From: Bacillus kwashiorkori
Lineage (GTDB): Bacteria > Bacillota > Bacilli > Bacillales > Caldibacillaceae
Direction: 5' to 3'
DNA length: 24,000 nucleotides
Assembly: GCF_001375515.1 (NCBI RefSeq)
Contig: NZ_CTDX01000016.1
Coordinates: forward strand, 446,942 to 470,941
Part shown: piece after piece, positions 134-21,551 of the stretch
How the letters are laid out: every line of letters starts with the position of its first letter
Numbering within the stretch: the first letter of the stretch is position 1
Translations under genes and position numbers: made by a program
Notes under the pieces: generated by a model
Databases searched by the model: none
What the model was told of the DNA's origin: nothing
What the model saw: the letters and a program-made list of their open reading frames with translations, nothing else

Positions 134-163
134 AGGACCTCGATGAAGAGGTTCTTTTTTTTT
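134..163 (+). terminator. Rho-independent terminator after efp
   Basis: 8-bp stem AGGACCTC (134-141) / GAGGTTCT (148-155) with one G-T wobble and a 6-nt loop, followed by a run of T to 163. Confidence 0.8.
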
Positions 164-164
164 G

Positions 165-194
165 TCATACTTTAAAGAATATAACAATACATTT
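165..194 (+). promoter_or_regulatory. Candidate sigma-E type promoter of the spoIIIA operon
   Basis: TCATACT (165-171) resembles the sigma-E -35 (kmATAtt). aATACAtT (187-194) resembles the -10 (CATACAnT). Spacer is about 15 nt. The spoIIIA operon is sigma-E dependent in B. subtilis. Confidence 0.4.
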
Positions 195-239
195 AAAAGT
201 GAGAAAAGCTTTGATTGGAAAAGTGAAGGGCGGATACCA

Positions 240-1169
240 ATGATGGAATCAATATTATCTTTTCTACCATCGAAAATAAAAGAACAACTTAACTACATTC
301 CAAAGACTATTCAACAAAATATTGAAGAAGTCCGAGTAAGAATTAATCGTCCAATAGAAATTATTACGAAGGAAAAAACTTACTATTTGCCATACATCAT
401 TAATACCCATGATAGTGAACAACTATTAAATAAAATTAGTCATCATTCCCTTTACACGTTAGAGGAAGAATTAAAACGCGGGTTTATCACAGTAGAAGGT
501 GGCCACCGGATTGGTTTAGCTGGAAAAGTGATCTTAGAAAATGGACAAGTAAAAGCAATTAGGCAAATTTCTTCATTCAATATTCGCTTGGCAAAGGAAG
601 TTGTTGGCATCGGGGATGAACTAGTACCTTATTTATTTGATAAACAATGGCAACATACGATGATTATCGGTCCACCACAAACTGGGAAAACAACGCTTTT
701 AAGAGACATCGCAAGAATTATAACGACAGGTGTAAAAGAAAAAAACATCCCAGCTCTGAAGGTAGGAATTGTCGATGAACGTTCGGAAATTGCCGGTTGT
801 GTTAATGGTATTCCCCAAATGACGTTCGGAGTAAGAGTGGACATTTTAGATGCTTGTCCAAAAGCGGAAGGAATGATGATGATGATTCGTTCCATGAGCC
901 CGGACGTGTTAGTAGTAGATGAAATTGGCAGAAAGGAAGATAGCGAAGCGATATTGGAGGCGATGCATGCGGGAATTCGCCTTGTAATGACTACCCATGG
1001 AAATTCTTTTGCCGATTTGAAAAAACGCCCAACTTTACAACCGATATTAGAACAAAAAGTTTTTGATAGATTTATTGAACTTTCTAGAAAAAATGGGCCT
1101 GGGACAATTGCCAATATTAAAGACAAGAATGGGATGGAAATAGTGAGAAAAGTGAGTGTTCGGACATGA
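240..1169 (+). CDS. spoIIIAA: Stage III sporulation protein AA (AAA+ secretion-type ATPase)
   Basis: The track ORF 162-1169 begins inside the efp terminator. ATG at 240 follows GAAGGG (225-230) and gives ~309 aa, similar to B. subtilis SpoIIIAA. Walker A GPPQTGKTT is present. It is first in an eight-gene spoIIIA cluster. Confidence 0.9.
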   Translation: MMESILSFLPSKIKEQLNYIPKTIQQNIEEVRVRINRPIEIITKEKTYYLPYIINTHDSEQLLNKISHHSLYTLEEELKRGFITVEGGHRIGLAGKVILENGQVKAIRQISSFNIRLAKEVVGIGDELVPYLFDKQWQHTMIIGPPQTGKTTLLRDIARIITTGVKEKNIPALKVGIVDERSEIAGCVNGIPQMTFGVRVDILDACPKAEGMMMMIRSMSPDVLVVDEIGRKEDSEAILEAMHAGIRLVMTTHGNSFADLKKRPTLQPILEQKVFDRFIELSRKNGPGTIANIKDKNGMEIVRKVSVRT

Positions 1170-1681
1170 TGAAGATTATCGGTGCAGTTTTTATTATCGG
1201 TGCAACGAGTTGGATCGGGTTTGAGGCGGCAAGACAATTATCAGAAAGAGCAAAACAATTACGCTTATTAAAGTCTGCATTACAAAGCTTGGAAGCTGAA
1301 ATTATGTTTGGCCATGCCCCACTTCATGAAGCTTCACGTCGAATTGCAAAACAACTAAAAGAACCGTTATCACAAATATTCGGAAAATTTTCGACGTATT
1401 TGTTAGAACAGGAATTGACAGCAAAAGAAGCATGGGATTTAAGCTTGATCAATACGTGGAACGAGACAGCAATGAAACAAGAGGAGTTAGAAATTTTACA
1501 CCAATTTGGAGAAACACTCGGAAAGCATGACTTAATTCAACAGCAGAAACAAATCCGACTAGCATTGACGCATTTAGAAAGACAAGAAACGGAAGCAAGA
1601 GAAAAACAATTAATATATGGAAAAATGATGAAAAGTTTAGGATTTTTATCTGGATTACTGCTCGTACTTTTGCTAGTTTAG
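1166..1681 (+). CDS. spoIIIAB: Stage III sporulation protein AB
   Basis: 171 aa, the same length as B. subtilis SpoIIIAB. ATG overlaps the spoIIIAA stop (ATGA). N- and C-terminal TM segments are present. It is second in the operon. Confidence 0.9.
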   Translation: MMKIIGAVFIIGATSWIGFEAARQLSERAKQLRLLKSALQSLEAEIMFGHAPLHEASRRIAKQLKEPLSQIFGKFSTYLLEQELTAKEAWDLSLINTWNETAMKQEELEILHQFGETLGKHDLIQQQKQIRLALTHLERQETEAREKQLIYGKMMKSLGFLSGLLLVLLLV

Positions 1682-1720
1682 CAAAAATCATGTTGTCGGT
1701 ACAGTTGGGAGGATAAGAGA

Positions 1721-1927
1721 ATGGGTATTGATGTCGATGTAATTTTCAAAATAGCTGGAGTTGGAATCGTAGTAGCTTTTTTACACACCATATTAGATCA
1801 AGTTGGCAAAAAAGAATATGCCCAATGGGTTACATTATTTGGTTTTATTTATATATTATTTCAAGTAGCATCTATTGTTGAAAATTTATTTCAAAAAATT
1901 AAATCGGTCTTTTTATTTAGTAGCTAG
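1721..1927 (+). CDS. spoIIIAC: Stage III sporulation protein AC
   Basis: 68-aa two-TM protein preceded by RBS GGGAGGA. Size and position match SpoIIIAC. Confidence 0.9.
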   Translation: MGIDVDVIFKIAGVGIVVAFLHTILDQVGKKEYAQWVTLFGFIYILFQVASIVENLFQKIKSVFLFSS

Positions 1928-1939
1928 GAGGGGTTAGCA

Positions 1940-2329
1940 ATTGAAATTTTACAAATAGTTGGTACCGGCTTAATTGCTGCCTTCCTCGCCTTAATTATAA
2001 AAGAACAAAAACCAAATATTGCCTTTTTACTAACGGTATTTACCGGTTGTGTTATTTTCTTATTTTTAATCGACCAAATTTACGTTGTTGTTCAAATGGT
2101 GGAGAGGCTAGCAATTAATGCAAAAGTGAATTTAGTTTACGTGGAAACGATCTTGAAAATCATTGGAATTGCCTATATTGTTGAGTTTGCTTCACAAATA
2201 ACGAAAGATGCAGGCCAAGGATCTATTGCTTCAAAAATCGAGTTAGCAGGGAAAATAATTATTCTTGCGATGGCAGTCCCTATCCTGACAGTACTAATTG
2301 AAATGGTTCTTCAAATGATTCCTTCATAG
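1940..2329 (+). CDS. spoIIIAD: Stage III sporulation protein AD (apparent ATT start codon)
   Basis: The frame is open from the stop TAG at 1925-1927 and reads (I)EILQIVGTGLIAAFLALIIKEQKPNIAFLL..., homologous to the SpoIIIAD N-terminus. There is no ATG, GTG or TTG in frame before 2096. AGGAGGGG (1926-1933) lies 6 nt before ATT 1940. The track ORF 2096-2329 is only the C-terminal part. Confidence 0.75.
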   Translation: MEILQIVGTGLIAAFLALIIKEQKPNIAFLLTVFTGCVIFLFLIDQIYVVVQMVERLAINAKVNLVYVETILKIIGIAYIVEFASQITKDAGQGSIASKIELAGKIIILAMAVPILTVLIEMVLQMIPS

Positions 2330-2374
2330 ACATGTAATAAATTTTGTTATGAAACGGGCTAAAGAGGTGAAAAG

Positions 2375-3559
2375 ATGAAGCAGCGATTCCTCCTATTAAT
2401 AACGTTGAGTTTGTTATTTTTCTGGACAAGCAATGTGCAGGCAGAAACATCGGAATCAGAAGAACAAACACCGTTAAATATCGTCGAAGAACAAATCGAT
2501 AACCTTGATTTAAGTGAAATTCAACGGTTTTGGAATGAAATAACGGAAGAATACGGTGGTTTTTTTCCAAATAGTGAAAAAGGCAGTTTAGTAGACTATA
2601 TAAAAGCAGCTGGTGATTTTTCTTTCAAAGAATGGCTTTTAGGCATTTTGAAATTCATTTTCCATGAATTAATAGAAAATGGGAAATTAATCGGTTCACT
2701 AATAATGTTAACGATTTTCAGTATGTTTTTACAATCGTTGCACAATTCTTTTGAAAAAAGCTCTATAAGTAAAATCGCTTACTCCATTGTTTTTATGGTT
2801 CTTATGATTATTGCATTAAATAGCTTTCATATTGCGATTAACTACGCAAGCCATGCCATTGAAAATATGATTCACTTTACTTTAGCTTTTATCCCACTTT
2901 TGCTCGCATTGATTGCGACTAGTGGAGGAATTGTATCAGCAAGTTTTTTCCATCCAGTCATTTTATTTCTAACAAATATTAGTGGTGTTTTCGTAAATCA
3001 TATCGTCTTACCATTATTATTTTTATCGGCATTATTAAGTATCGTTAGTACGTTAACAGAACATTACAAGGCAACACAATTAGCACAACTTTTAAGAAAT
3101 TGGAGTATCGGACTTCTCGGTATATTTATGACGGTTTTTTTAAGTGTCGTATCTATTCAAGGAACGACCACAGCTGTAGCAGACGGTGTCGCCATCAAAA
3201 CAGCAAAATTTGTAACAGGTAATTTTATTCCAGTTGTAGGCAGAATGTTTACGGATGCAGCAGATACGGTAATTAGTGCATCTGCCTTATTAAAAAATAC
3301 GATTGGGATTGCAGGGGTTGGCATATTACTAGTGTTAATGCTCTTCCCAGCAATAAAAATATTAATGATTGCCTTTATTTATAAATTTTCAGCAGCGCTA
3401 CTACAACCACTTGGAGGAGGTCCGATTATTACTTGCTTAGATGTCATTTCCAAATGTGTCATTTATTTATTTGCAGCACTGGGGATTGTTTCCATTATGT
3501 TCTTTTTAAGTTTAACAGTCATTATTATGGCAGGGAATTTAACAATGATGGTTAGATAA
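2375..3559 (+). CDS. spoIIIAE: Stage III sporulation protein AE (polytopic membrane protein)
   Basis: 394 aa with N-terminal signal peptide (LLFFWTSNVQAE) and multiple TM segments. RBS is AAGAGGTGA. It is fifth in the operon. Confidence 0.9.
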   Translation: MKQRFLLLITLSLLFFWTSNVQAETSESEEQTPLNIVEEQIDNLDLSEIQRFWNEITEEYGGFFPNSEKGSLVDYIKAAGDFSFKEWLLGILKFIFHELIENGKLIGSLIMLTIFSMFLQSLHNSFEKSSISKIAYSIVFMVLMIIALNSFHIAINYASHAIENMIHFTLAFIPLLLALIATSGGIVSASFFHPVILFLTNISGVFVNHIVLPLLFLSALLSIVSTLTEHYKATQLAQLLRNWSIGLLGIFMTVFLSVVSIQGTTTAVADGVAIKTAKFVTGNFIPVVGRMFTDAADTVISASALLKNTIGIAGVGILLVLMLFPAIKILMIAFIYKFSAALLQPLGGGPIITCLDVISKCVIYLFAALGIVSIMFFLSLTVIIMAGNLTMMVR

Positions 3560-3577
3560 ATCAAAGTAGGTGGAAGG

Positions 3578-4195
3578 ATGGAGTTTTTATCTAGTTGGAT
3601 TGGCAATGTTTTAATGTTTATATTACTAGCTGTCATCGTAGAAATGTTACTTCCACAATCAAATATACAAAAATATGTAAAAATGGTTCTTGGATTATTA
3701 TTGATTGTTATCATACTAACACCTATTTTTCAAATATTTTCTGTAGACGTGAATACTTTGTTAAATCAAGTAGCTAATTCTTCCAATGAACAAAATTTTC
3801 AACTAGAAAATTCAATAGAAAATAAGAAAAAAGAAATACAAGCCACTCAAGATGCATATATTTTAGAACAAGCAGCTTATCAATTAAGAGAAATAGTGGA
3901 AAAGGAGTTGATAGAGGAGTTTGGCTTAACATTTCAAGATATTCAAATTGTGTTAAATAATATGGATGGGGACTTTCCGGAAAATTTAAAACATATTTCA
4001 GTCCGGTTAAAAGAGTATAAAGACTCTAATGAAATTGAAGAAGTGCAAGAAGTGCTCGTTACTATGGATCAAAAGCCGAGTAATAATGATGACCAGTTAA
4101 TAACTGCCGTCGCAACATTTCTTTCATCACGATGGGATATAGCAAAAGAGACGGTGAATATTTCTATTGAAAGGGGGAGGGCAGTTAATGAATGA
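3578..4195 (+). CDS. spoIIIAF: Stage III sporulation protein AF
   Basis: 205 aa with two N-terminal TM segments. RBS is GGTGGAAGG. Size and position match SpoIIIAF. Confidence 0.9.
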   Translation: MEFLSSWIGNVLMFILLAVIVEMLLPQSNIQKYVKMVLGLLLIVIILTPIFQIFSVDVNTLLNQVANSSNEQNFQLENSIENKKKEIQATQDAYILEQAAYQLREIVEKELIEEFGLTFQDIQIVLNNMDGDFPENLKHISVRLKEYKDSNEIEEVQEVLVTMDQKPSNNDDQLITAVATFLSSRWDIAKETVNISIERGRAVNE

Positions 4196-4838
4196 AGAAA
4201 AGGGACCATTAACTTCCATAAAGAAATGGCTCAATCAAACGAATAATTCCCAAAATGATAAGCTGAACAAAAAACACTATTTACTACTAGTGCTGGTCAT
4301 AGGAATAGCCTTTATGCTCTTTAGCAGTTTTATCAACAATGATCAAGATGACAAACAATTGCCTGTCACCTCCAATGAATCGGCTGAAGATCGAGATGTT
4401 GAAGTTTTTGGAAAGTCTAAAGATACCGATTTTAATACGATGGCAGAATATGAAAGGTATTATGAAAACTCGATAAAGGAAGCGTTAGAGTCAATTGTTG
4501 GAGTCGAGGATGTAACTGTCGTTGTAAATGTTGATTCAACAGAGAAGAAAGTGTATGAGAAGAATAAAATTCAGAAGAACCAAACTACTGATGAAACCGA
4601 TGCTAACGGTGGAAAACGTAAAGTAGAAGATCGTACAACAGAAGAACAAATGGTCATTATCCGTGAAGCGGAAAAAGAAATACCGTTAGTCAGTGAGACA
4701 AAGAAACCAAATATTCGGGGTGTCCTTGTCGTTGCCAAAGGAGCAGAAAATATTGCGGTGAAAAAAATGATTATTGAGGCTGTAATGCGGGTGCTAGATG
4801 TTCCGAGCCATCGCGTATCCGTTTTAGCGAAAAAATAG
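4188..4838 (+). CDS. spoIIIAG: Stage III sporulation protein AG
   Basis: ATG 4188 follows GGGGGAGGG and overlaps the spoIIIAF stop (ATGAATGA). The protein has a single TM and a conserved C-terminal domain (IRGVLVVAKGAEN...VSVL). The track start at 4167 (TTG) lacks an RBS. Confidence 0.88.
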   Translation: MNEEKGPLTSIKKWLNQTNNSQNDKLNKKHYLLLVLVIGIAFMLFSSFINNDQDDKQLPVTSNESAEDRDVEVFGKSKDTDFNTMAEYERYYENSIKEALESIVGVEDVTVVVNVDSTEKKVYEKNKIQKNQTTDETDANGGKRKVEDRTTEEQMVIIREAEKEIPLVSETKKPNIRGVLVVAKGAENIAVKKMIIEAVMRVLDVPSHRVSVLAKK

Positions 4839-4862
4839 TGTAATAATGGGAGGTAAATGTCA

Positions 4863-5420
4863 ATGATGTTAAAAAAGCAAACTGTTTGGTTATTAACAAT
4901 GTTAAGTTTAGTCGTAGTTTTATCCATATACTATATTCTCTCACCAGAAAATAAAACGAATAATAATGTTGCTCAAGTAAATCAAAATCAAGAGCAAAAA
5001 CAAGAGGAAGCGGATAAAGGGAAGGAAGATAATAAAACAAATATTACAAACGTCACTGGTGATGAAGCGTTTGAAATTATCCGCATGCAATTAGCAGATG
5101 AGCGCAGTAAGGAATTCGAGCAATTGCAAATTATTGCCGCTTCAACGGAACTTACCGCTGAAGAGAGAAGTGAAGCTAGAGATGAGATGAATCGTATAAG
5201 TGATTTTGCAGAAAAAGAAAAAATGTTGGAAACGTTAATAGTATCTAATTTAGGTTATGAAGATGCTTTAGTTCAAGCAGATGAGAGTGCTGTGAAAATT
5301 ACTGTAAAAGGTCATGAGCCATCTAAGACAAAAGCGAATGAAATAGTCCGTATGGTTCAAAAAGAAACAGGTATAACAATGGTAAATGTTGCTTTTCATA
5401 CAGAAAATGAAGAAAACTAA
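4863..5420 (+). CDS. spoIIIAH: Stage III sporulation protein AH
   Basis: The N-terminus MLKKQTVWLLTMLSLVVVLS is nearly identical to B. subtilis SpoIIIAH. GGAGG (4849-4853) is too close to ATG 4857, so ATG 4863 or 4866 is preferred. The exact start is uncertain by 1-3 codons. Confidence 0.85.
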   Translation: MMLKKQTVWLLTMLSLVVVLSIYYILSPENKTNNNVAQVNQNQEQKQEEADKGKEDNKTNITNVTGDEAFEIIRMQLADERSKEFEQLQIIAASTELTAEERSEARDEMNRISDFAEKEKMLETLIVSNLGYEDALVQADESAVKITVKGHEPSKTKANEIVRMVQKETGITMVNVAFHTENEEN

Positions 5421-11262: not shown

Positions 11263-12144
11263 TTGTCCGATCTATCCTTGTTTATGGAACAGAATTTATC
11301 TAGTTTAAACATGAAACTAAGTGAGTACGTAAACCGTCTCGACGCACCTACCATATTAAAAGATTCAATGGATTATTCTATTCAAGCTGGTGGAAAAAGA
11401 ATCCGTCCCTTATTAATTTTAATGACTTTAGAAGCATTTCAAAAAAATCATGATAATGGACTTCCAGTTGCGTGTGCAGTGGAAATGGTTCATACATATT
11501 CGCTTATTCATGATGATCTTCCAAGTATGGATGATGATGATTTTCGGCGAGGAAAGTTTACGAACCATAGAGTATTTGGTGAAGCAAATGCTATTTTAGC
11601 TGGAGATGCATTATTAACGTATGCATTTCAAATGATCGCAGAATCACCTTCTATTTCCGACAAACATAAAGTTCAATTAATATTTGAACTAGCAAAGGCT
11701 GCTGGTCCAGAAGGTATGGTGGCAGGACAAGTAGCTGATATAGAGGGAGAAAATAAAACACTCTCGATAAAAGAATTAGAATATATTCATGTAAATAAAA
11801 CTGGGAGATTATTAGCTTTTTGTATTAAAGCTGGCGCTATTCTTGCTGACGCGAAAGAGGAAATAATCTCAGCTTTAGAGGAATTCTCATTACATCTTGG
11901 TCTAGCGTTTCAAATTCGAGATGATATATTAGATATTGAAGGCTCATTAGAAACGATTGGGAAACAAGTTGGTAGTGATGAAGGTAAGCAGAAAGCAACA
12001 TATCCTGCCCTTTTAACATTAGCAGGTGCAAAAGAAAAATTAACCGAACATATTAATCGTGCTAAAACTATTTTAGAAAACTTGCCGATTAAAAATAATT
12101 TATTATTGGAAATGACAGAGTTAATCGCGACAAGAAATTCGTAG
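11263..12144 (+). CDS. ispA: Farnesyl diphosphate synthase
   Basis: 293 aa with TTG start 5 nt after GAGGAGGAG. Both aspartate-rich motifs are present (IHDDLPSMDDDDFRRG and FQIRDDILD). Confidence 0.95.
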   Translation: MSDLSLFMEQNLSSLNMKLSEYVNRLDAPTILKDSMDYSIQAGGKRIRPLLILMTLEAFQKNHDNGLPVACAVEMVHTYSLIHDDLPSMDDDDFRRGKFTNHRVFGEANAILAGDALLTYAFQMIAESPSISDKHKVQLIFELAKAAGPEGMVAGQVADIEGENKTLSIKELEYIHVNKTGRLLAFCIKAGAILADAKEEIISALEEFSLHLGLAFQIRDDILDIEGSLETIGKQVGSDEGKQKATYPALLTLAGAKEKLTEHINRAKTILENLPIKNNLLLEMTELIATRNS

Positions 12145-12177
12145 TGGAAGTGTCCTTTTTTACCAAAAAACCGTTCA

Positions 12178-12206
12178 TTGTCTATAGAAAAATGTTATGT
12201 TATAAT
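12178..12206 (+). promoter_or_regulatory. Near-consensus sigma-A promoter with extended -10, directly after ispA
   Basis: TTGTCT (12178-12183), exactly 17-nt spacer, TGt-TATAAT (12198-12206). The predicted start near 12213 would initiate the noncoding segment. Confidence 0.6.
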
Positions 12207-12212
12207 TATTTT

Positions 12213-12825
12213 GTTATAGTGGTGCAGTATTCTAGTCGGACTACTGAACTTGAAGGTAGGGCTAAAAATCTACTAAAGGGCATATCGATGAAGTTTCTAG
12301 TATAGGCTTGAGGCGCCCAGCTTTGGGTCGATACTGGAAGTAAGGTTAAAGGGCGATCCGCAATGGCATGCGGGCGTGGACCCTCTAATCGCGGAGGCTC
12401 CATATTTGGGTAACCGATATGGAGTAAAACCTGATACGTGAGGGAGAGGATCAGCACGTACAGTGTAGCCTGCCTTGAGTGAAACATGAGGGGATTATGG
12501 TTATAAAAATAAATAACAGTTGGCCATTGTTACTTATTTTTCCGTCCATATGAAATCTGTTTTGCAAAAGAGGATAGAGTTCAGAAAAAGTTTGTTAGAG
12601 GAAAACTCCTAGACTGTTCCGAAAGACATAATGTAAGGATTATAGTACGGACTAAGTGGCAATCCAGTCTAACAATTGGTGACAATGTTAAGGCAGATTT
12701 AAAGGGAAACCGCCTGTGTGGCGACACTGGGTATTTGCCTGGGAAAACCTACTGGACCTAAGCCGTAATTTTGCCTTTAATTATGACCACTAAATGATTA
12801 GCTTAAGGGGATTTTCCCCTACTAC
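12213..12825 (+). ncRNA. ole: Candidate OLE (ornate, large, extremophilic) RNA; boundaries approximate
   Basis: About 610 nt with no credible ORF, lying between ispA and a 4-TM protein followed by dxs, which is the published OLE context. GC-rich blocks contain local helices: 12398-12405/12417-12424 (8 bp), 12358-12362/12369-12373, 12435-12440/12455-12460 and 12806-12810/12816-12820. The call rests on context and structure, not a covariance-model hit. Confidence 0.75.
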
Positions 12826-12853
12826 ATAATTTTTGCGCGGAAAGAGACATTTT

Positions 12854-13465
12854 ATGAGACAAATGTTAAAAAATTCGTTAAAATGGAGTTTAACAATCGC
12901 CGTTACCACATTTGTGTTAGCGGCTATTTTTTCAATATTCTCCAACTATATTTTAAATGATATTAGTTGGATTGCTGGAATTGGTGTCGTATTAGGCATT
13001 GTGTTAATAGGGATTTTTTTTGATATGATTGGTATTGCTGCTACTGCTGCTGATGAAGTACCGTTTCATGCGATGGCCTCTAATAAAGTGTATGGTGCAA
13101 AACATTCGGTTCGAATTGTTCGCAATGCAGACAAAGTCGCTTCTTTTTGTAATGATGTTATTGGCGATATATCCGGCATCATTAGTGGTACTGCCTCAGC
13201 TATTGTCATTATCCAACTTACAGCTAATTTTTATATAGGTAAAAATAGTTTATTCGAATATATTATTTCTGTTATTTTTACAAGTTTCATTGCAGCATTA
13301 ACAGTTGGCGGCAAAGCATTCGGAAAATCCTTTGCTATTCAATTTTCTAAGCAAATTATTTTACAAGCTGGGAAAGTGTTGCAATTTTTAGAAGAAAAGT
13401 TTCATATCGTAATATTAAAAGAGAAAAAGAAACGTAAAAAAAAGAAAAATCGATTAAGAAAGTGA
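12854..13465 (+). CDS. oapA: OLE-associated membrane protein A candidate (4 TM, polybasic C-terminus)
   Basis: About 203 aa from ATG 12854. Four hydrophobic segments are present, plus acidic motifs (FFDMIGIAATAADEV and NDVIGDISG) and the C-terminal tail KEKKKRKKKKNRLRK. It sits between the ncRNA and dxs. The start could also be 12833 or 12863. Confidence 0.7.
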   Translation: MRQMLKNSLKWSLTIAVTTFVLAAIFSIFSNYILNDISWIAGIGVVLGIVLIGIFFDMIGIAATAADEVPFHAMASNKVYGAKHSVRIVRNADKVASFCNDVIGDISGIISGTASAIVIIQLTANFYIGKNSLFEYIISVIFTSFIAALTVGGKAFGKSFAIQFSKQIILQAGKVLQFLEEKFHIVILKEKKKRKKKKNRLRK

Positions 13466-13477
13466 GTGATCTGCTTC

Positions 13478-15370
13478 ATGGATGTATTATCCATTAAAGA
13501 TCCTTCGTTTTTAAAAGACTTATCTATCGAACAGTTAGAAGATTTGAGTCAACATATCCGAGATTTTTTAATCGAAAAACTTTCCATCACTGGTGGACAT
13601 ATCGGTCCTAATCTAGGTGTTGTGGAGCTGACGATTGCACTTCATAAAAGCTTTAACAGTCCGAAAGATAAATTTATTTGGGATGTTGGTCATCAATCAT
13701 ATGTTCACAAAATTTTAACTGGGCGGGCAAAAGACTTTGATTCCATAAGGCAATATAAAGGTTTAAGTGGATTTCCAAAACGCAGTGAAAGTGAGCACGA
13801 TATTTGGGAAACTGGCCATAGTTCGACGAGCCTATCTGCTGCGATGGGTATGGCAATTGCCCGCGATTTACGTGGAGAAAACCACCATATTGTGCCAATT
13901 ATTGGGGATGGTGCACTAACAGGTGGCATGGCATTAGAAGCATTAAACCATATTGGTCATGAAAAGAAAAATATTATCGTTGTATTAAATGATAACGAAA
14001 TGTCAATTGCACCTAACGTCGGAGCCCTGCATAATATGCTTGGTCGAGTCCGTACGGCAAGTAAATACAACTTTGTCAAAGATGAAATGGAGTCATTATT
14101 AAAAAAGATACCTGCAGTAGGTGGAAAAGTCGCCTCCACAGCAGAAAGAATTAAAGATAGTTTTAAATACTTTTTTGTTCCTGGAATTTTCTTTGAAGAA
14201 CTAGGTTTTACGTATTTAGGTCCTGTTGATGGTCATGATTTTGACGATTTATTTGATAGCTTGCGAAATGCGAAAAAAACAGAAGGACCAGTATTGCTTC
14301 ATGTTGTAACGAAAAAAGGGAAAGGATATAAACCAGCGGAAACTGATAAAATAGGTACATGGCATGGTACAGGCCCATATAAAATTGAAACAGGTGCATT
14401 TGTTAAGCCAGTTACAAGCCCTCCTGCTTGGAGTAAGTTAGTAAGTGAAACGGTTAGAACATTAGCTAGACAAGATGAGCGAATTGTAGCAATAACTCCA
14501 GCTATGCCCGTTGGTTCAAAGTTGGAAGGTTTCCAGCAGGAATTTCCAAACCGATTTTTTGACGTAGGAATTGCTGAACAACATGCAACGACATTAGCGG
14601 CAGGTTTGGCGATAGATGGAATGAAACCATTTTTAGCCATCTATTCCACTTTTTTACAGAGGGCATATGATCAGCTTGTCCATGATATTTGCCGACAAAA
14701 TTTGAACGTCTTTATCGGTGTCGATCGTGCGGGTTTAGTTGGTGCCGATGGAGAAACTCATCAAGGTGTATTTGATATCGCCTTTTTAAGGCATTTACCA
14801 AATATAGTATTAATGATGCCTAAAGATGAAAATGAAGGCCAACATATGGTTTATACAGCTTTACATTATGATGATGGACCAATAGTTATGCGTTTTCCAC
14901 GTGGAAATGGATTAGGAGTTCCGTTAGACGAACAATTGTGTGAAATCCCTATCGGATCTTGGGAAATACTACGGGAAGGCCGAGACTTAGCAATTCTCAC
15001 TTTTGGAACAACGATTCCACTTGCCTTAGAAGCAGCTGAATATTTTTCGAAAAAAGGAATTAGCATTAAAGTTGTGAATGCTAGATTTATTAAGCCATTA
15101 GATGAAGAAATGTTAAGACAAATTTTTCAGGAAAATATGCCTATAATAACAATAGAAGAAGCGGTTTTACAAGGCGGCTTTGGCAGTTCTATTTTGGAAT
15201 TTGCCCATGATCAAGCATACCACCACGTAAATATTCAACGAATGGGTATCCATGATCAATTTATTGAACACGGCAGTGTAAATAAATTGTTAGAAGAAAT
15301 TGGATTAACGACGGAAAACTTAATCCAACTAGCCAATAGTATGATTCAAAAACTAGCAAAAAGGGCATGA
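13478..15370 (+). CDS. dxs: 1-deoxy-D-xylulose-5-phosphate synthase
   Basis: ATG 13478 gives [14 protein letters not shown], aligned to the B. subtilis Dxs start (MDLLSIQDPSFLKN). 630 aa. The TPP-binding motif [15 protein letters not shown] is present. Confidence 0.96.
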
Positions 15371-16229: not shown

Positions 16230-16337
16230 TTTTTCTGTTAAAATAAATGTAGATTTAGCAGGATTTTTGTCGATAAAAATCGAAAGCAATAGTACGAAGG
16301 TAAGTATTATTGGTTGACATACATAGAGGTGACAGAA

Positions 16338-16790
16338 TTGAGTAAAAAGCAACGTCATATAAAAATTCGCGAAATAATTGGGAAAAAGGAAATAGAGACC
16401 CAAGATGAATTAGTTCACTATTTGCGGGAAGCTGGTTTTAAAGTGACACAAGCAACGATTTCTCGGGATATAAAAGAACTTCACTTAATTAAAGTCCCAA
16501 CAATTAAAGGTCATTATAAGTATAGCCTTCCAGCAGATCAACGTTTTAACCCTTTGGAAAAACTAAGGAAAACGCTTTTTGACGCATTTGTAAAAATCGA
16601 TTATGCCGACCATTTGCTCGTACTAAAAACAATACCAGGCAATGCACAAGCGGTAGGAGCACTAATCGATCAATTGGAATGGGAAGAAATTATTGGTACT
16701 ATTTGTGGAGACGATACTTGTCTAGTCATTTGTCGTAGCCCAGAGATGGCGCAAAATCTTTCAACTCGAATTACAGATATGCTGACTTAG
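16338..16790 (+). CDS. argR: Arginine repressor
   Basis: TTG 16338 lies 7 nt after AGAGGTG and gives [14 protein letters not shown], aligned to B. subtilis AhrC ([14 protein letters not shown]). 150 aa. GTICGDDT is conserved. Confidence 0.93.
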
Positions 16791-18612: not shown

Positions 18613-19902
18613 ATGCGATTGGATTTAGATAAAATTAGAAAATTATTAGGGATAATTCTCCTTGTTTCTTTCGTTTATATCGGCTTTTTTTCACCAGTAA
18701 GTAAGTTATTGAAACAACCGACAACGATGACAGTTTTTGAAGGTGCAAATGAAGTAATTCCAACGACAGCAAATGTCCAGGCAATAAAGAATAATGATAA
18801 TATTCACATTGCTTATGATGAGAAAAATGTTTCTTTAACTGCATTAAATAGCGGTGATAGTGAAGTGTTATTAGAACTAGCTGGAATACCGCTAAAGAAA
18901 GTGAAAGTAAATGTATTAAAAGATTTAAGAGTCATTCCTGGCGGTCAATCTATAGGAGTAAAAATTAATACTAAAGGTGTCTTAGTAGTAGGTCATCACC
19001 AGGTGGACACAACTAGTGGGAAAATATCACCTGGGGAAAAAGCTGGTATAAAAGTTGGGGATTTAATCACCGAAATTAATGGAAAACCAATTTTATCTAT
19101 GGGAGAAGTTACTCCTTTCGTACAGCAAGCTGGATCAAGTGGAAAACCATTAAAACTCGTGATTAAACGAAATGAAGAAACGATTAAGACAGAACTTTCT
19201 CCAGAAAAAGATAAAAATGAAGACAAATACAAGTTAGGCTTATATATTCGTGACTCTGCGGCAGGCATTGGTACGTTAACATTTTATGAACCGAATAGTA
19301 AAAATTACGGTGCGTTAGGTCATGTTATTTCTGACATGGATACAAAAATGCCAATCGTAGTGAAAGATGGTTATATCGTTCCGTCTACCGTCACTTCCAT
19401 TAATAAAGGTAGTAACGGAGTACCTGGAGAAAAGCTAGCCCGTTTTTTACCAGAACGTAGTATAGTTGGTAATATTCGAGCTAATAACCAGTTCGGCATA
19501 TTCGGTCAATTAAACAAAAATATAAAGAATGGAATAGCAGATAAACCAATTCCAGTTGCGTTGTCTCATGAAGTGAAAAAAGGACCGGCGAAAATTTTAA
19601 CGGTTGTCGATGATGATAAAGTAGAAGCATTTGACATCGAAATCGTTAACTCTATTCCGCAAAAGTTCCCTGCAACGAAAGGGATGGTAATTAAAATAAC
19701 TGACCCTCGATTATTGGAAAGAACAGGGGGAATTGTTCAAGGAATGAGCGGAAGCCCTATCATCCAAAACGGTAAATTAATTGGGGCTGTCACACATGTT
19801 TTTGTCAATGATCCTACGAGTGGTTACGGTGTTCATATCGAATGGATGCTAAGAGAAGCAAATATAGACATTTATAAAAAGGACTTAAATAATGCAAGTT
19901 AA
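18613..19902 (+). CDS. spoIVB: SpoIVB signalling serine peptidase (PDZ + S55 peptidase)
   Basis: 429 aa with an N-terminal TM and a PDZ-like segment ([16 protein letters not shown]). The S55 catalytic region [11 protein letters not shown] is present. Its position between recN and spo0A matches B. subtilis. Confidence 0.94.
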
Positions 19903-19935: not shown

Positions 19936-20083
19936 GAAAAGCGAAGGCGACTGTTTAGCGGCGTATGGACTGGACCCAAACCGCAGGAGATAAAGGAAAC
20001 ACGATGAGCCCCGCGAATCGATGTTGACTTATCGTACGGAGGTTTGGGGAAGTCCACTAGCCGCTAGGAGCCGCAGCTGGACA
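19936..20083. repeat. Repeat unit 1 (variant A)
   Basis: Self-complementary helices: 19956-19962/20060-20066, 19966-19970/20052-20056, 19975-19982/20041-20048, 19989-19993/20029-20033 and 20002-20005/20017-20020. Confidence 0.85.
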
Positions 20084-20151
20084 TCAAGGTTCGCAGACTA
20101 AGTACGCGGCGTCCTGCCGCAACGTCTGCATGACCAACGTCGTGTTGGCCC
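20084..20151. repeat. Unique GC-rich connector module with nested and adjacent short hairpins
   Basis: GCAGAC (20093-20098) / GTCTGC (20124-20129) encloses GCGGC (20106-20110) / GCCGC (20116-20120). CCAAC (20134-20138) / GTTGG (20144-20148) follows. The module occurs only between units 1 and 2. Confidence 0.6.
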
Positions 20152-20696: not shown

Positions 20697-20753
20697 GTTT
20701 AATAGCGTAAATTTTTATTGAAGGAAATTGCGTCAATTGGGGAGGATACTTTT

Positions 20754-21551
20754 GTGAAAAAGATTAAAGTTTGTATCGTTGATGATAATAAAGAATTAAT
20801 TAGCTTGCTGGAAGATTATATAAATGGCCAAGAAGATATGGAAGTAATTGGAAAAGCATATAATGGTCAAGAATGTTTAAAATTATTAGAAACGGTCGAA
20901 CCCGATGTCGTTCTTTTAGATATAATAATGCCTCATCTAGACGGACTGGCAGTATTGGAAAAATTACAAGAAAAGAGTTATTTCCCGAATATCATTATGC
21001 TTACTGCTTTTGGCCAAGAAGATGTAACGAAAAAAGCGGTAGACTTAGGTGCTTCCTATTTTATGTTAAAACCATTTGATATGAATCATTTAACGAATCA
21101 AATACGAAATGTTACTGGAAAGAAATCGAAGTTACCGATTAAACAAACAAATAACAATGAAAATATAAACAAAACCGAAGAACCTGTACATAAGCCAAAA
21201 AACTTAGATGCAAGTATAACAAGTATTATTCATGAAATTGGTGTCCCTGCCCATATTAAAGGGTATTTATATTTACGGGAAGCTATTTCGATGGTATATA
21301 ATGATATTGAATTATTAGGTTCCATTACGAAAGTGTTATATCCTGATATTGCAAAAAAGTTCAATACGACAGCTAGCCGTGTGGAACGAGCCATTCGTCA
21401 TGCTATTGAAGTAGCCTGGAGTCGTGGAAACATTGATTCTATCTCTTCTCTATTTGGCTATACCGTTAGTATGTCAAAGGCAAAACCAACAAATAGTGAG
21501 TTTATCGCAATGGTCGCAGATAAATTACGACTTGAACACCAAGCATCGTAA
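20754..21551 (+). CDS. spo0A: Sporulation master regulator Spo0A
   Basis: GTG 20754 lies 7 nt after GGGGAGGA and gives [15 protein letters not shown], aligned to B. subtilis MEKIKVCVADDNREL. The C-terminal DNA-binding domain is almost identical ([29 protein letters not shown]...[10 protein letters not shown]). Confidence 0.97.

Follow-up and report, generated by a model that had tools for sequence, protein, structure and literature searches.

The 24,000-nt stretch of Bacillus kwashiorkori DNA analysed here (the window; GCF_001375515.1, NZ_CTDX01000016.1, positions 446,942-470,941 of the forward strand, with coordinates counted from the window start) almost certainly carries, between ispA and dxs, a full-length OLE RNA gene together with oapA. 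OLE (ornate, large, extremophilic) RNA, a bacterial RNA of ~600 nt bound to the membrane, was described in 2006 and has its own Rfam family. When the whole window was scanned against Rfam 15, two matches rose above threshold, OLE and Bacillaceae-1, and the OLE model (RF01071) aligns to 12203-12806 on the + strand with 465.5 bits (threshold 50, E 7e-134), spanning model positions 1-616 of 616 without truncation. An earlier, sequence-only reading of this DNA had proposed an OLE-type RNA here while noting that such RNAs are already described, and the covariance model agrees on both counts, as the window holds a typical full-length member of the family. The span marked by that reading, 12145-13465, takes in the promoter, the RNA and the protein gene:

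12178-12206, + strand: OLE promoter, -35 TTGTCT at 12178-12183, 17-nt spacer, extended -10 TGtTATAAT at 12198-12206
12203-12806, + strand: OLE RNA gene (Rfam envelope, RF01071), with the paired core P1-P1' at 12218-12791
12854-13465, + strand: oapA, ATG start, 203 aa, weak Shine-Dalgarno GGAAAGAG at 12839-12846

The interval from ispA to oapA (12145-12853) is 709 nt long, has 10-21 stops per sense frame and holds no credible open reading frame (ORF). Its G+C content is raised, at 0.41-0.46 over 12100-12550 compared with ~0.33-0.35 in the flanking DNA. Both the ORF-free segment, followed by a gene for a protein with four transmembrane segments ahead of dxs, and the raised G+C had been pointed out from the letters alone, and both are there.

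The fold of the RNA argues for the same assignment. When the Rfam structure line is transferred to the window, 148 of the 159 model pairs have both partners and 138 of them are standard, the 11 absent pairs all lying in a single hairpin, P7 in the current nomenclature. As a comparison set we used 80 related loci from reference genomes, fetched with the downstream protein (the best 80 of 593) and drawn from Fervidibacillus, Rossellomorea, Lederbergia, Halalkalibacter, Virgibacillus, Fictibacillus and others, with neither a B. kwashiorkori record nor H. halodurans among them. With the window RNA as query, nhmmer detects a homologue in every one of these loci (E<=1e-68), on the same strand and with its 3' end 22-228 nt ahead of the protein start. 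The 81 RNAs, that is the window and its 80 relatives, were aligned with MAFFT (alignment A3), and structures whose 3' partners had been slid by 1-3 columns served as the control. On this alignment 89.6% of cells pair under the Rfam structure, compared with 39-45% under the slid ones, both sides change in 103 of the 148 pairs, and the observed measures were reached by none of 500 shuffles. Helices 6 and 8 pair in only 45% and 35% of cells, which could be held against the OLE fold. We rejected this argument as an artefact, since the hairpin tips concerned, those of P7 and P8, differ in length between sequences and are misaligned by MAFFT, and in the window itself both hairpins pair well. The first 53 nt are unpaired in the Rfam model. 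A 2025 review describes P1, P2 and a 12-bp helix of P3 and P3.1 that connects the two domains and would, as proposed there, cross the membrane (PMC12265935), and, guided by this description, we found all four elements in the window by inspection, with the alignment as a further basis:

12218-12223 with 12786-12791, + strand: P1
12224-12227 and 12231-12235 with 12609-12617, + strand: P2 (candidate)
12237-12242 with 12589-12594, + strand: P3
12244-12249 with 12579-12584, + strand: P3.1

P3 and P3.1 together make 12 bp in the window as well. The P1-P3.1 stems pair in 95.5% of the cells of alignment A3, compared with 28-47% when slid, and 15 of their 27 pairs change on both sides. With these stems included, 165 of the 175 base pairs of the window RNA are standard (94%).

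The product of 12854-13465 is identical to a public B. kwashiorkori 'hypothetical protein' with the same coordinates. It has four hydrophobic segments (residues ~12-30, 40-64, 102-124 and 133-155) and a DxxxD motif (D101-V-I-G-D105) that is invariant in 66 homologues and that, according to Fernando and Breaker, separates OapA from CNNM domains (PMC11332333). Its C-terminus is rich in Lys and Arg (KEKKKRKKKKNRLRK). A positively charged cluster on the cytoplasmic face is a criterion for OapA (PMC12265935), and this tail would correspond to such a cluster. In all 80 fetched loci the protein gene comes next after an OLE homologue on the same strand. The homologues from Halalkalibacter, the nearest to the H. 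halodurans lineage that we tested, are 56-58% identical to the window protein. Searches of Pfam and NCBIfam with the 203-aa protein gave no family at E<=0.01 and noise alone at E<=10, and a sequence search of the PDB gave no match at E<=1. An AlphaFold2 model (predicted local distance difference test, pLDDT, 77; predicted template modelling score, pTM, 0.65) is all-helical. Its top two Foldseek matches in the PDB are chains of the archaeal CNNM Mg2+ transporter MtCorB (7m1t_A and 7m1t_B, TMq 0.52 and 0.43); the 7M1T match has E 5.7e-3 and probability 1.00, and the next match has E 0.84. With the sequence search of the PDB blank, it took a fold search to reveal the CorB link. A CorB/CNNM resemblance is already published for the OapA of H. 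halodurans (PMC11332333), and 56 of 66 close homologues of the window protein give weak Pfam CNNM matches (best E 9e-7). Thus the four transmembrane segments, the DxxxD motif, the basic tail, the CNNM/CorB-like fold and the position after OLE in all 80 relatives together identify the gene as oapA, the identity that the sequence-only reading had given to its four-segment protein.

The window protein shares with the OapA family of H. halodurans (BH2780) a length of ~200 aa, the four transmembrane segments, DxxxD, the basic cluster, a gene lying 3' of ole and the CNNM-like fold. The transmembrane domain of the MpfA/CorB/CorC proteins (PF01595; MtCorB 7M1T/7M1U) is its best structural match. OapA nevertheless differs from the CNNM transporters in having four transmembrane segments rather than three, in carrying DxxxD and in lacking the conserved CNNM proline (PMC11332333), and the window protein, which ends at residue 203, is without their CBS pair and their CorC/HlyC domains. 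Falling below the Pfam CNNM threshold, it is by that criterion not a member of the CNNM family. Two of the related loci come from records with unexpected titles, 'Pseudomonas sp. ISL-84' (JAGGRA010000014.1) and 'Bacillus subtilis strain DE0224' (VTQV01000025.1). Both hold a typical Bacillaceae ispA-OLE-oapA-dxs arrangement, with OapA proteins 68% and 66% identical to that of the window. To our knowledge B. subtilis proper is not an OLE host, so both records are probably mislabelled or contaminated.

With the possible exception of the OapC k-turn, all motifs with roles assigned in the literature are intact in the window RNA, and the conserved unpaired motifs (the loops of P4, P5.1, P6.1 and P9, and GAGGAAAACUCCUAGACUGUUC) are present in columns that are invariant or nearly so:

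12231-12235 / 12609-12613, + strand: UCUAG/CUAGA pairing in P2, reported partial OapA site (PMC12265935)
12255-12274, + strand: P4 hairpin, A-rich loop CUAAAAAU at 12262-12269, RNA-RNA dimer contact reported from cryo-EM (PMC12265935)
12284-12289, + strand: AUCGAU palindrome in P4a/J4a-5, reported partial OapA site, its 5' side part of the OapC k-turn (PMC12265935; Lyon et al. 2022)
12294-12340, + strand: P5/P5.1, 20-bp long hairpin, loop GCCCA at 12315-12319, reported dimer contact (PMC12265935)
12344-12390, + strand: P6/P6.1, loop AUGGCA at 12363-12368, complementary to the P5.1 loop, reported kissing dimer contact (PMC12265935)
12398-12424, + strand: P7, 27-nt hairpin with GUAA loop
12431-12463, + strand: P8, 13-bp hairpin, base of the stem (helix 7) covarying
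12472-12574, + strand: P9 arm, long and A/U-rich, palindromic loop UGGCCA at 12521-12526, reported dimer contact (PMC12265935)
12627-12785, + strand: 3' domain (P12-P15 region), helices 17-22, 92-100% paired, with extensive covariation
12670-12690, + strand: P13, OapB-binding site by the reported determinants, GUGA tetraloop at 12679-12682 and one-nt bulge A12675
12721-12724, + strand: second GNRA loop, GCGA, reported weak secondary OapB site (PMC7936274)

The P4 loop CUAAAAAU is invariant in the 81 sequences and its helix is 99.8% paired with four covarying pairs; the columns of the AUCGAU palindrome are likewise invariant. P5/P5.1 pairs in 96% of cells, with 10 covarying pairs and an invariant loop, and in P9 changes on both sides are frequent in helices 9-14 around an invariant loop GGCC. 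The GNRA loop and the one-nucleotide bulge of P13 are the determinants that OapB is reported to recognise (PMC7936274). The genes for OapB (oapB, ybzG) and OapC (oapC, ybxF) are both absent from the 24-kb window.

The only local peculiarities of the window OLE are a short P7 and a J5/6 that is one nt shorter. P7 is unusually short, 27 nt compared with ~45-50 nt in most relatives, with 9+9 model positions deleted, and the shortening is also visible at alignment columns 200-250. This hairpin is not a dimer contact and is missing from some natural OLE variants. J5/6 (12336-12345) reads GGAAGU-AAGG, compared with GGGAGUUAAGG in most relatives, and thus has one U fewer (A3 column 141), a gap common to ~22 of the 80 relatives, including Fervidibacillus and Rossellomorea. 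Conservation in the OapC k-turn region extends to the 5' strand AUCGAUGAAG and to the GG of P6. We rebuilt the exact k-turn pairing tentatively from the written description in Lyon et al. 2022; in this reconstruction the absent U pairs within the non-canonical helix, so that the register of the k-turn may differ in the window RNA. It is conceivable, but improbable in our judgement, that the window OLE belongs with those of Fervidibacillus and Rossellomorea to a subclade of Bacillaceae that lacks one J5/6 U and works as full-length particles without the k-turn switch. Should the J5/6 deletion indeed block the switch by OapC and bS21, these RNAs would offer a natural 'minimal' comparator for identifying the essential partners, in a host, a gut Bacillus with a small genome of 2.78 Mb, that grows fast and can be cultured aerobically.

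The RNA has a promoter of its own. The scan matched 10 of 12 consensus positions, plus the TG extension, in a sigma-A-type promoter, and in 73 of the 81 loci a comparable one (>=9/12, nearly all with TG) precedes the conserved UGGUGCAG by 11-20 nt. The region ~60 nt upstream of OLE in the related loci holds a strong extended -10 of the form TGnTATAAT, often with a TTGAGA-like -35, and the Rossellomorea loci apparently have two tandem -10-like boxes (TATAAT, then TAGAAT or TATAAT). Because the -10 box reaches into the start of the Rfam envelope, the 5' end of the RNA probably lies at ~12213-12216, just before P1. The window promoter corresponds to the proximal promoter of B. halodurans, which raises OLE expression >100-fold; there the RNA has its own promoter and high stability, and its 5' ends lie where P1 begins (PMC3413148). 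At the other end, oapA starts 47 nt past the Rfam envelope. No terminator was found on the + strand between OLE and oapA by the terminator scan, RNAfold or our own scan of the window, and a terminator-like site is likewise not found in this interval in 73 of the 80 related loci. One small structure does lie there:

12805-12820, + strand: small hairpin AAGGGGAUUUUCCCCU, 5-bp GC stem with no adjacent U-run, not a canonical terminator

Since a terminator is lacking before oapA or dxs, ole and oapA are likely to be co-transcribed, with transcripts reading through into dxs. Judging from the sequence, oapA is probably transcribed from the OLE promoter together with read-through from upstream.

The RNA gene is overlapped by a single long antisense frame, which the sequence-only reading had already set aside as lacking a ribosome-binding site:

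12206-12487, - strand: antisense ORF, 93 aa, wholly within the OLE RNA gene, spurious

This frame is open and begins with ATG, and long stop-free antisense runs are common in the relatives (median 76 codons). It is precisely this commonness that makes the length of the run uninformative, and we dropped it as a test in favour of frame conservation. In the homologous region the length difference from the window is a multiple of 3 in only 21 of the 80 relatives, leaving the other 59 out of frame, the product has no match in Pfam, and substitutions in the region track base-pairing rather than codons. With no family match, a poorly kept frame and compensatory base-pair substitutions, the ORF is not a gene, and the chance that it encodes a real 93-aa protein is vanishingly small.

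What the OLE-OapA pair does is less readily settled. OapA binds OLE and is required for its localisation to the membrane, and H. halodurans that has lost OLE, OapA, OapB or OapC copes less well with cold, with short-chain alcohols, with poor carbon sources and with more than ~2 mM Mg2+ (PMC11332333, PMC12265935). OLE dimerises, and P3 is proposed to cross the bilayer (PMC12265935). From work on the OLE RNAs of H. halodurans and Clostridium, we infer that the window RNA would dimerise through the loops of P4, P5.1/P6.1 and P9, that dimers of OapA, bound to palindromic sites close to P2 and P4a, would anchor the RNA at the cell membrane or across it by way of P3/P3.1, and that OapB would bind the GNRA loop of P13. 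The resulting particle may tune a flux of divalent cations (Mg2+) mediated by OapA, with the RNA taking the place of the regulatory CBS and CorC domains of all-protein transporters such as MpfA and CorB, and such tuning could make the cell more tolerant of cold, alcohol and excess Mg2+ and of poor carbon sources. CNNM Mg2+ exporters of the MpfA type anticorrelate with OLE across Bacillota (PMC11332333). That regulation of cation transport is the core function of OLE-OapA is an appealing proposal, which we hold only tentatively and at somewhat less than even chances. As a whole, a full-length OLE with OapA and the reported functional motifs, with this mechanism as its tentative function, is very probably the best account of the locus. 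Several points nevertheless weigh against it. The evidence in B. kwashiorkori comes from sequence and models, and in the published work both the biochemical role of OLE and ion transport by OapA stand as proposals. Within the window, P7 is truncated, the one-nt-shorter J5/6 may alter the k-turn of OapC and bS21, and the protein has no match to the Pfam CNNM family (PF01595) even at E<=1. The fold match to MtCorB is modest (template modelling score 0.52), and the identity of OapA is argued from features, position and Halalkalibacter relatives.

It is possible that the ribonucleoprotein is mainly a scaffold or signalling hub ('bTOR') in which stress responses are coordinated by sequestering or releasing proteins such as bS21, OapC and ArgR, and ion transport is a side effect. 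More than one protein partner and alternative conformations of the k-turn have been reported, and the gene cluster contains unrelated core functions, including argR (16314-16790) just downstream. However, the hub is largely a hypothesis, and the sequence does not separate it from a regulator of a transporter. The two are not mutually exclusive, and we regard a predominantly scaffolding role as a minority possibility, though a substantial one. A more radical proposal, put forward by the Breaker laboratory (PMC11332333), is that OLE is a ribozyme, for example one that makes a signalling nucleotide such as c-di-AMP, with OapA merely its membrane anchor. About a quarter of OLE nucleotides are nearly invariant, the complexity of the fold resembles that of known ribozymes, and the window RNA has many invariant unpaired stretches without an assigned partner. 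Yet no catalysis by OLE has been reported over nearly 20 years, splicing and obvious self-cleavage were sought and not seen (PMC3413148), and ion homeostasis is favoured by the fact that OLE strictly co-occurs with a CNNM-like protein and anticorrelates with MpfA, so that we consider a ribozyme unlikely. Finally, the segment could be thought a long cis leader or riboswitch for oapA-dxs, or a decaying remnant, instead of a stand-alone RNA gene. Without a terminator in the OLE-oapA interval the RNA forms, in physical terms, the 5' portion of an mRNA precursor, and the shortened P7 may be counted on the same side. But the match to the OLE model is full-length, 94% of pairs are standard, the conserved motifs are all intact, and oapA is intact with its DxxxD invariant, while in H. 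halodurans OLE builds up as one very stable species and exerts its effect in trans, together with OapA (PMC3413148). A leader or remnant is therefore most improbable.

Compared with the OLE of H. halodurans C-125, the window RNA is alike in its full-length model match, its helices and invariant loops and its proximal promoter, and the loci share oapA directly downstream and the ispA...dxs-tlyA-argR-recN neighbourhood. The window RNA differs in its 27-nt P7, in the J5/6 with one U fewer, in a very A/U-rich P9 and in a U at C81 of the CAUCGAUG palindrome. The hosts differ as well, since that of the window is a 35% G+C, facultatively anaerobic gut mesophile that tolerates 56 °C and not an alkaliphile. 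With OLE variants 1 and 2 of the TANB77 and RF39 gut clades (Fernando and Breaker 2024) the window shares a gut host, a small genome and a shortened P7. Those variants, however, have P8 and P9 shortened or lost, in many cases along with the OapB site, whereas the window retains P8, P9 and the GNRA loop and bulge of P13 (PMC11332333). With P8 and P9 of normal length, its OLE is of the full-length type and not a reduced variant like those of TANB77 and RF39.

The sequence-only reading had called OLE rare, which overstates the case: a survey mapped it to 2,822 GTDB Bacillota genomes, almost always with OapA, and found OapB in ~60% and OapC in ~45% of the hosts (PMC11332333). Given this number and the very high score against the standard model, the window copy is a routine member of the family; it is no new kind of element and opens no new question. 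OLE nevertheless ranks among the largest and best conserved bacterial noncoding RNAs of still unknown biochemical function, and its structures suggest that it may cross the membrane. What the window adds is the standard module of ole and oapA, complete with promoter, dimer contacts and sites for binding partners, in a mesophilic, spore-forming Bacillus of the human gut with a small genome. Strain SIT6 of B. kwashiorkori is a human-gut isolate, a sporulating facultative anaerobe with a growth range of 25-56 °C, an optimum at 37 °C and a genome of 2.78 Mb with 35.2% G+C. Such a mesophilic gut host underlines that 'extremophilic' is a poor label for OLE hosts. For annotation, 12203-12806 is best labelled OLE RNA and the 'hypothetical protein' of 12854-13465 OapA, and the antisense ORF should not be called.

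The module is flanked by two genes:

11263-12144, + strand: ispA, farnesyl diphosphate synthase (NF045485, 419.6 bits)
13466 (GTG) or 13478 (ATG) to 15370, + strand: dxs (TIGR00204, 971 bits)

The ATG at 13478 is the more likely start of dxs. The oapA stop TGA (13463-13465) immediately precedes the GTG of the dxs ORF at 13466 and leaves a gap of 12 nt to the ATG, which suggests translational or transcriptional coupling of the two genes. On the 3' side of dxs lie tlyA, argR (16314-16790) and recN, and on the 5' side of ispA lie xseA, xseB, folD, nusB, an Asp23-family gene, accC and the spoIIIA operon. The order folD-xseA-xseB-ispA-[OLE]-oapA-dxs-tlyA-argR-recN recurs in 53 of the 80 relatives, the remainder differing slightly, and it agrees with the published set of genes that cluster with ole (PMC12265935). 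The arrangement ispA-OLE-oapA-dxs-tlyA within a nusB...recN cluster, which the sequence-only reading had recognised as a known OLE context, is thus the majority arrangement among the relatives. In 6 of the 80, tlyA comes next after oapA and the 4-kb flank holds no match to dxs, so that the linkage is common and not obligatory.

Sporulation genes surround the locus. The spoIIIA operon (AA, AB, AE, AF, AG and AH) occupies 162-5420, upstream of accB/accC, and spoIVB (18613-19902) and spo0A (20718-21551) lie downstream; these surroundings agree with the published correlation between OLE and sporulation proteins. The second RNA found in the window, Bacillaceae-1 (RF01690), maps to 20082-20148 on the + strand (74.6 bits, E 2.4e-12), inside the ~800-nt gap between spoIVB and spo0A.

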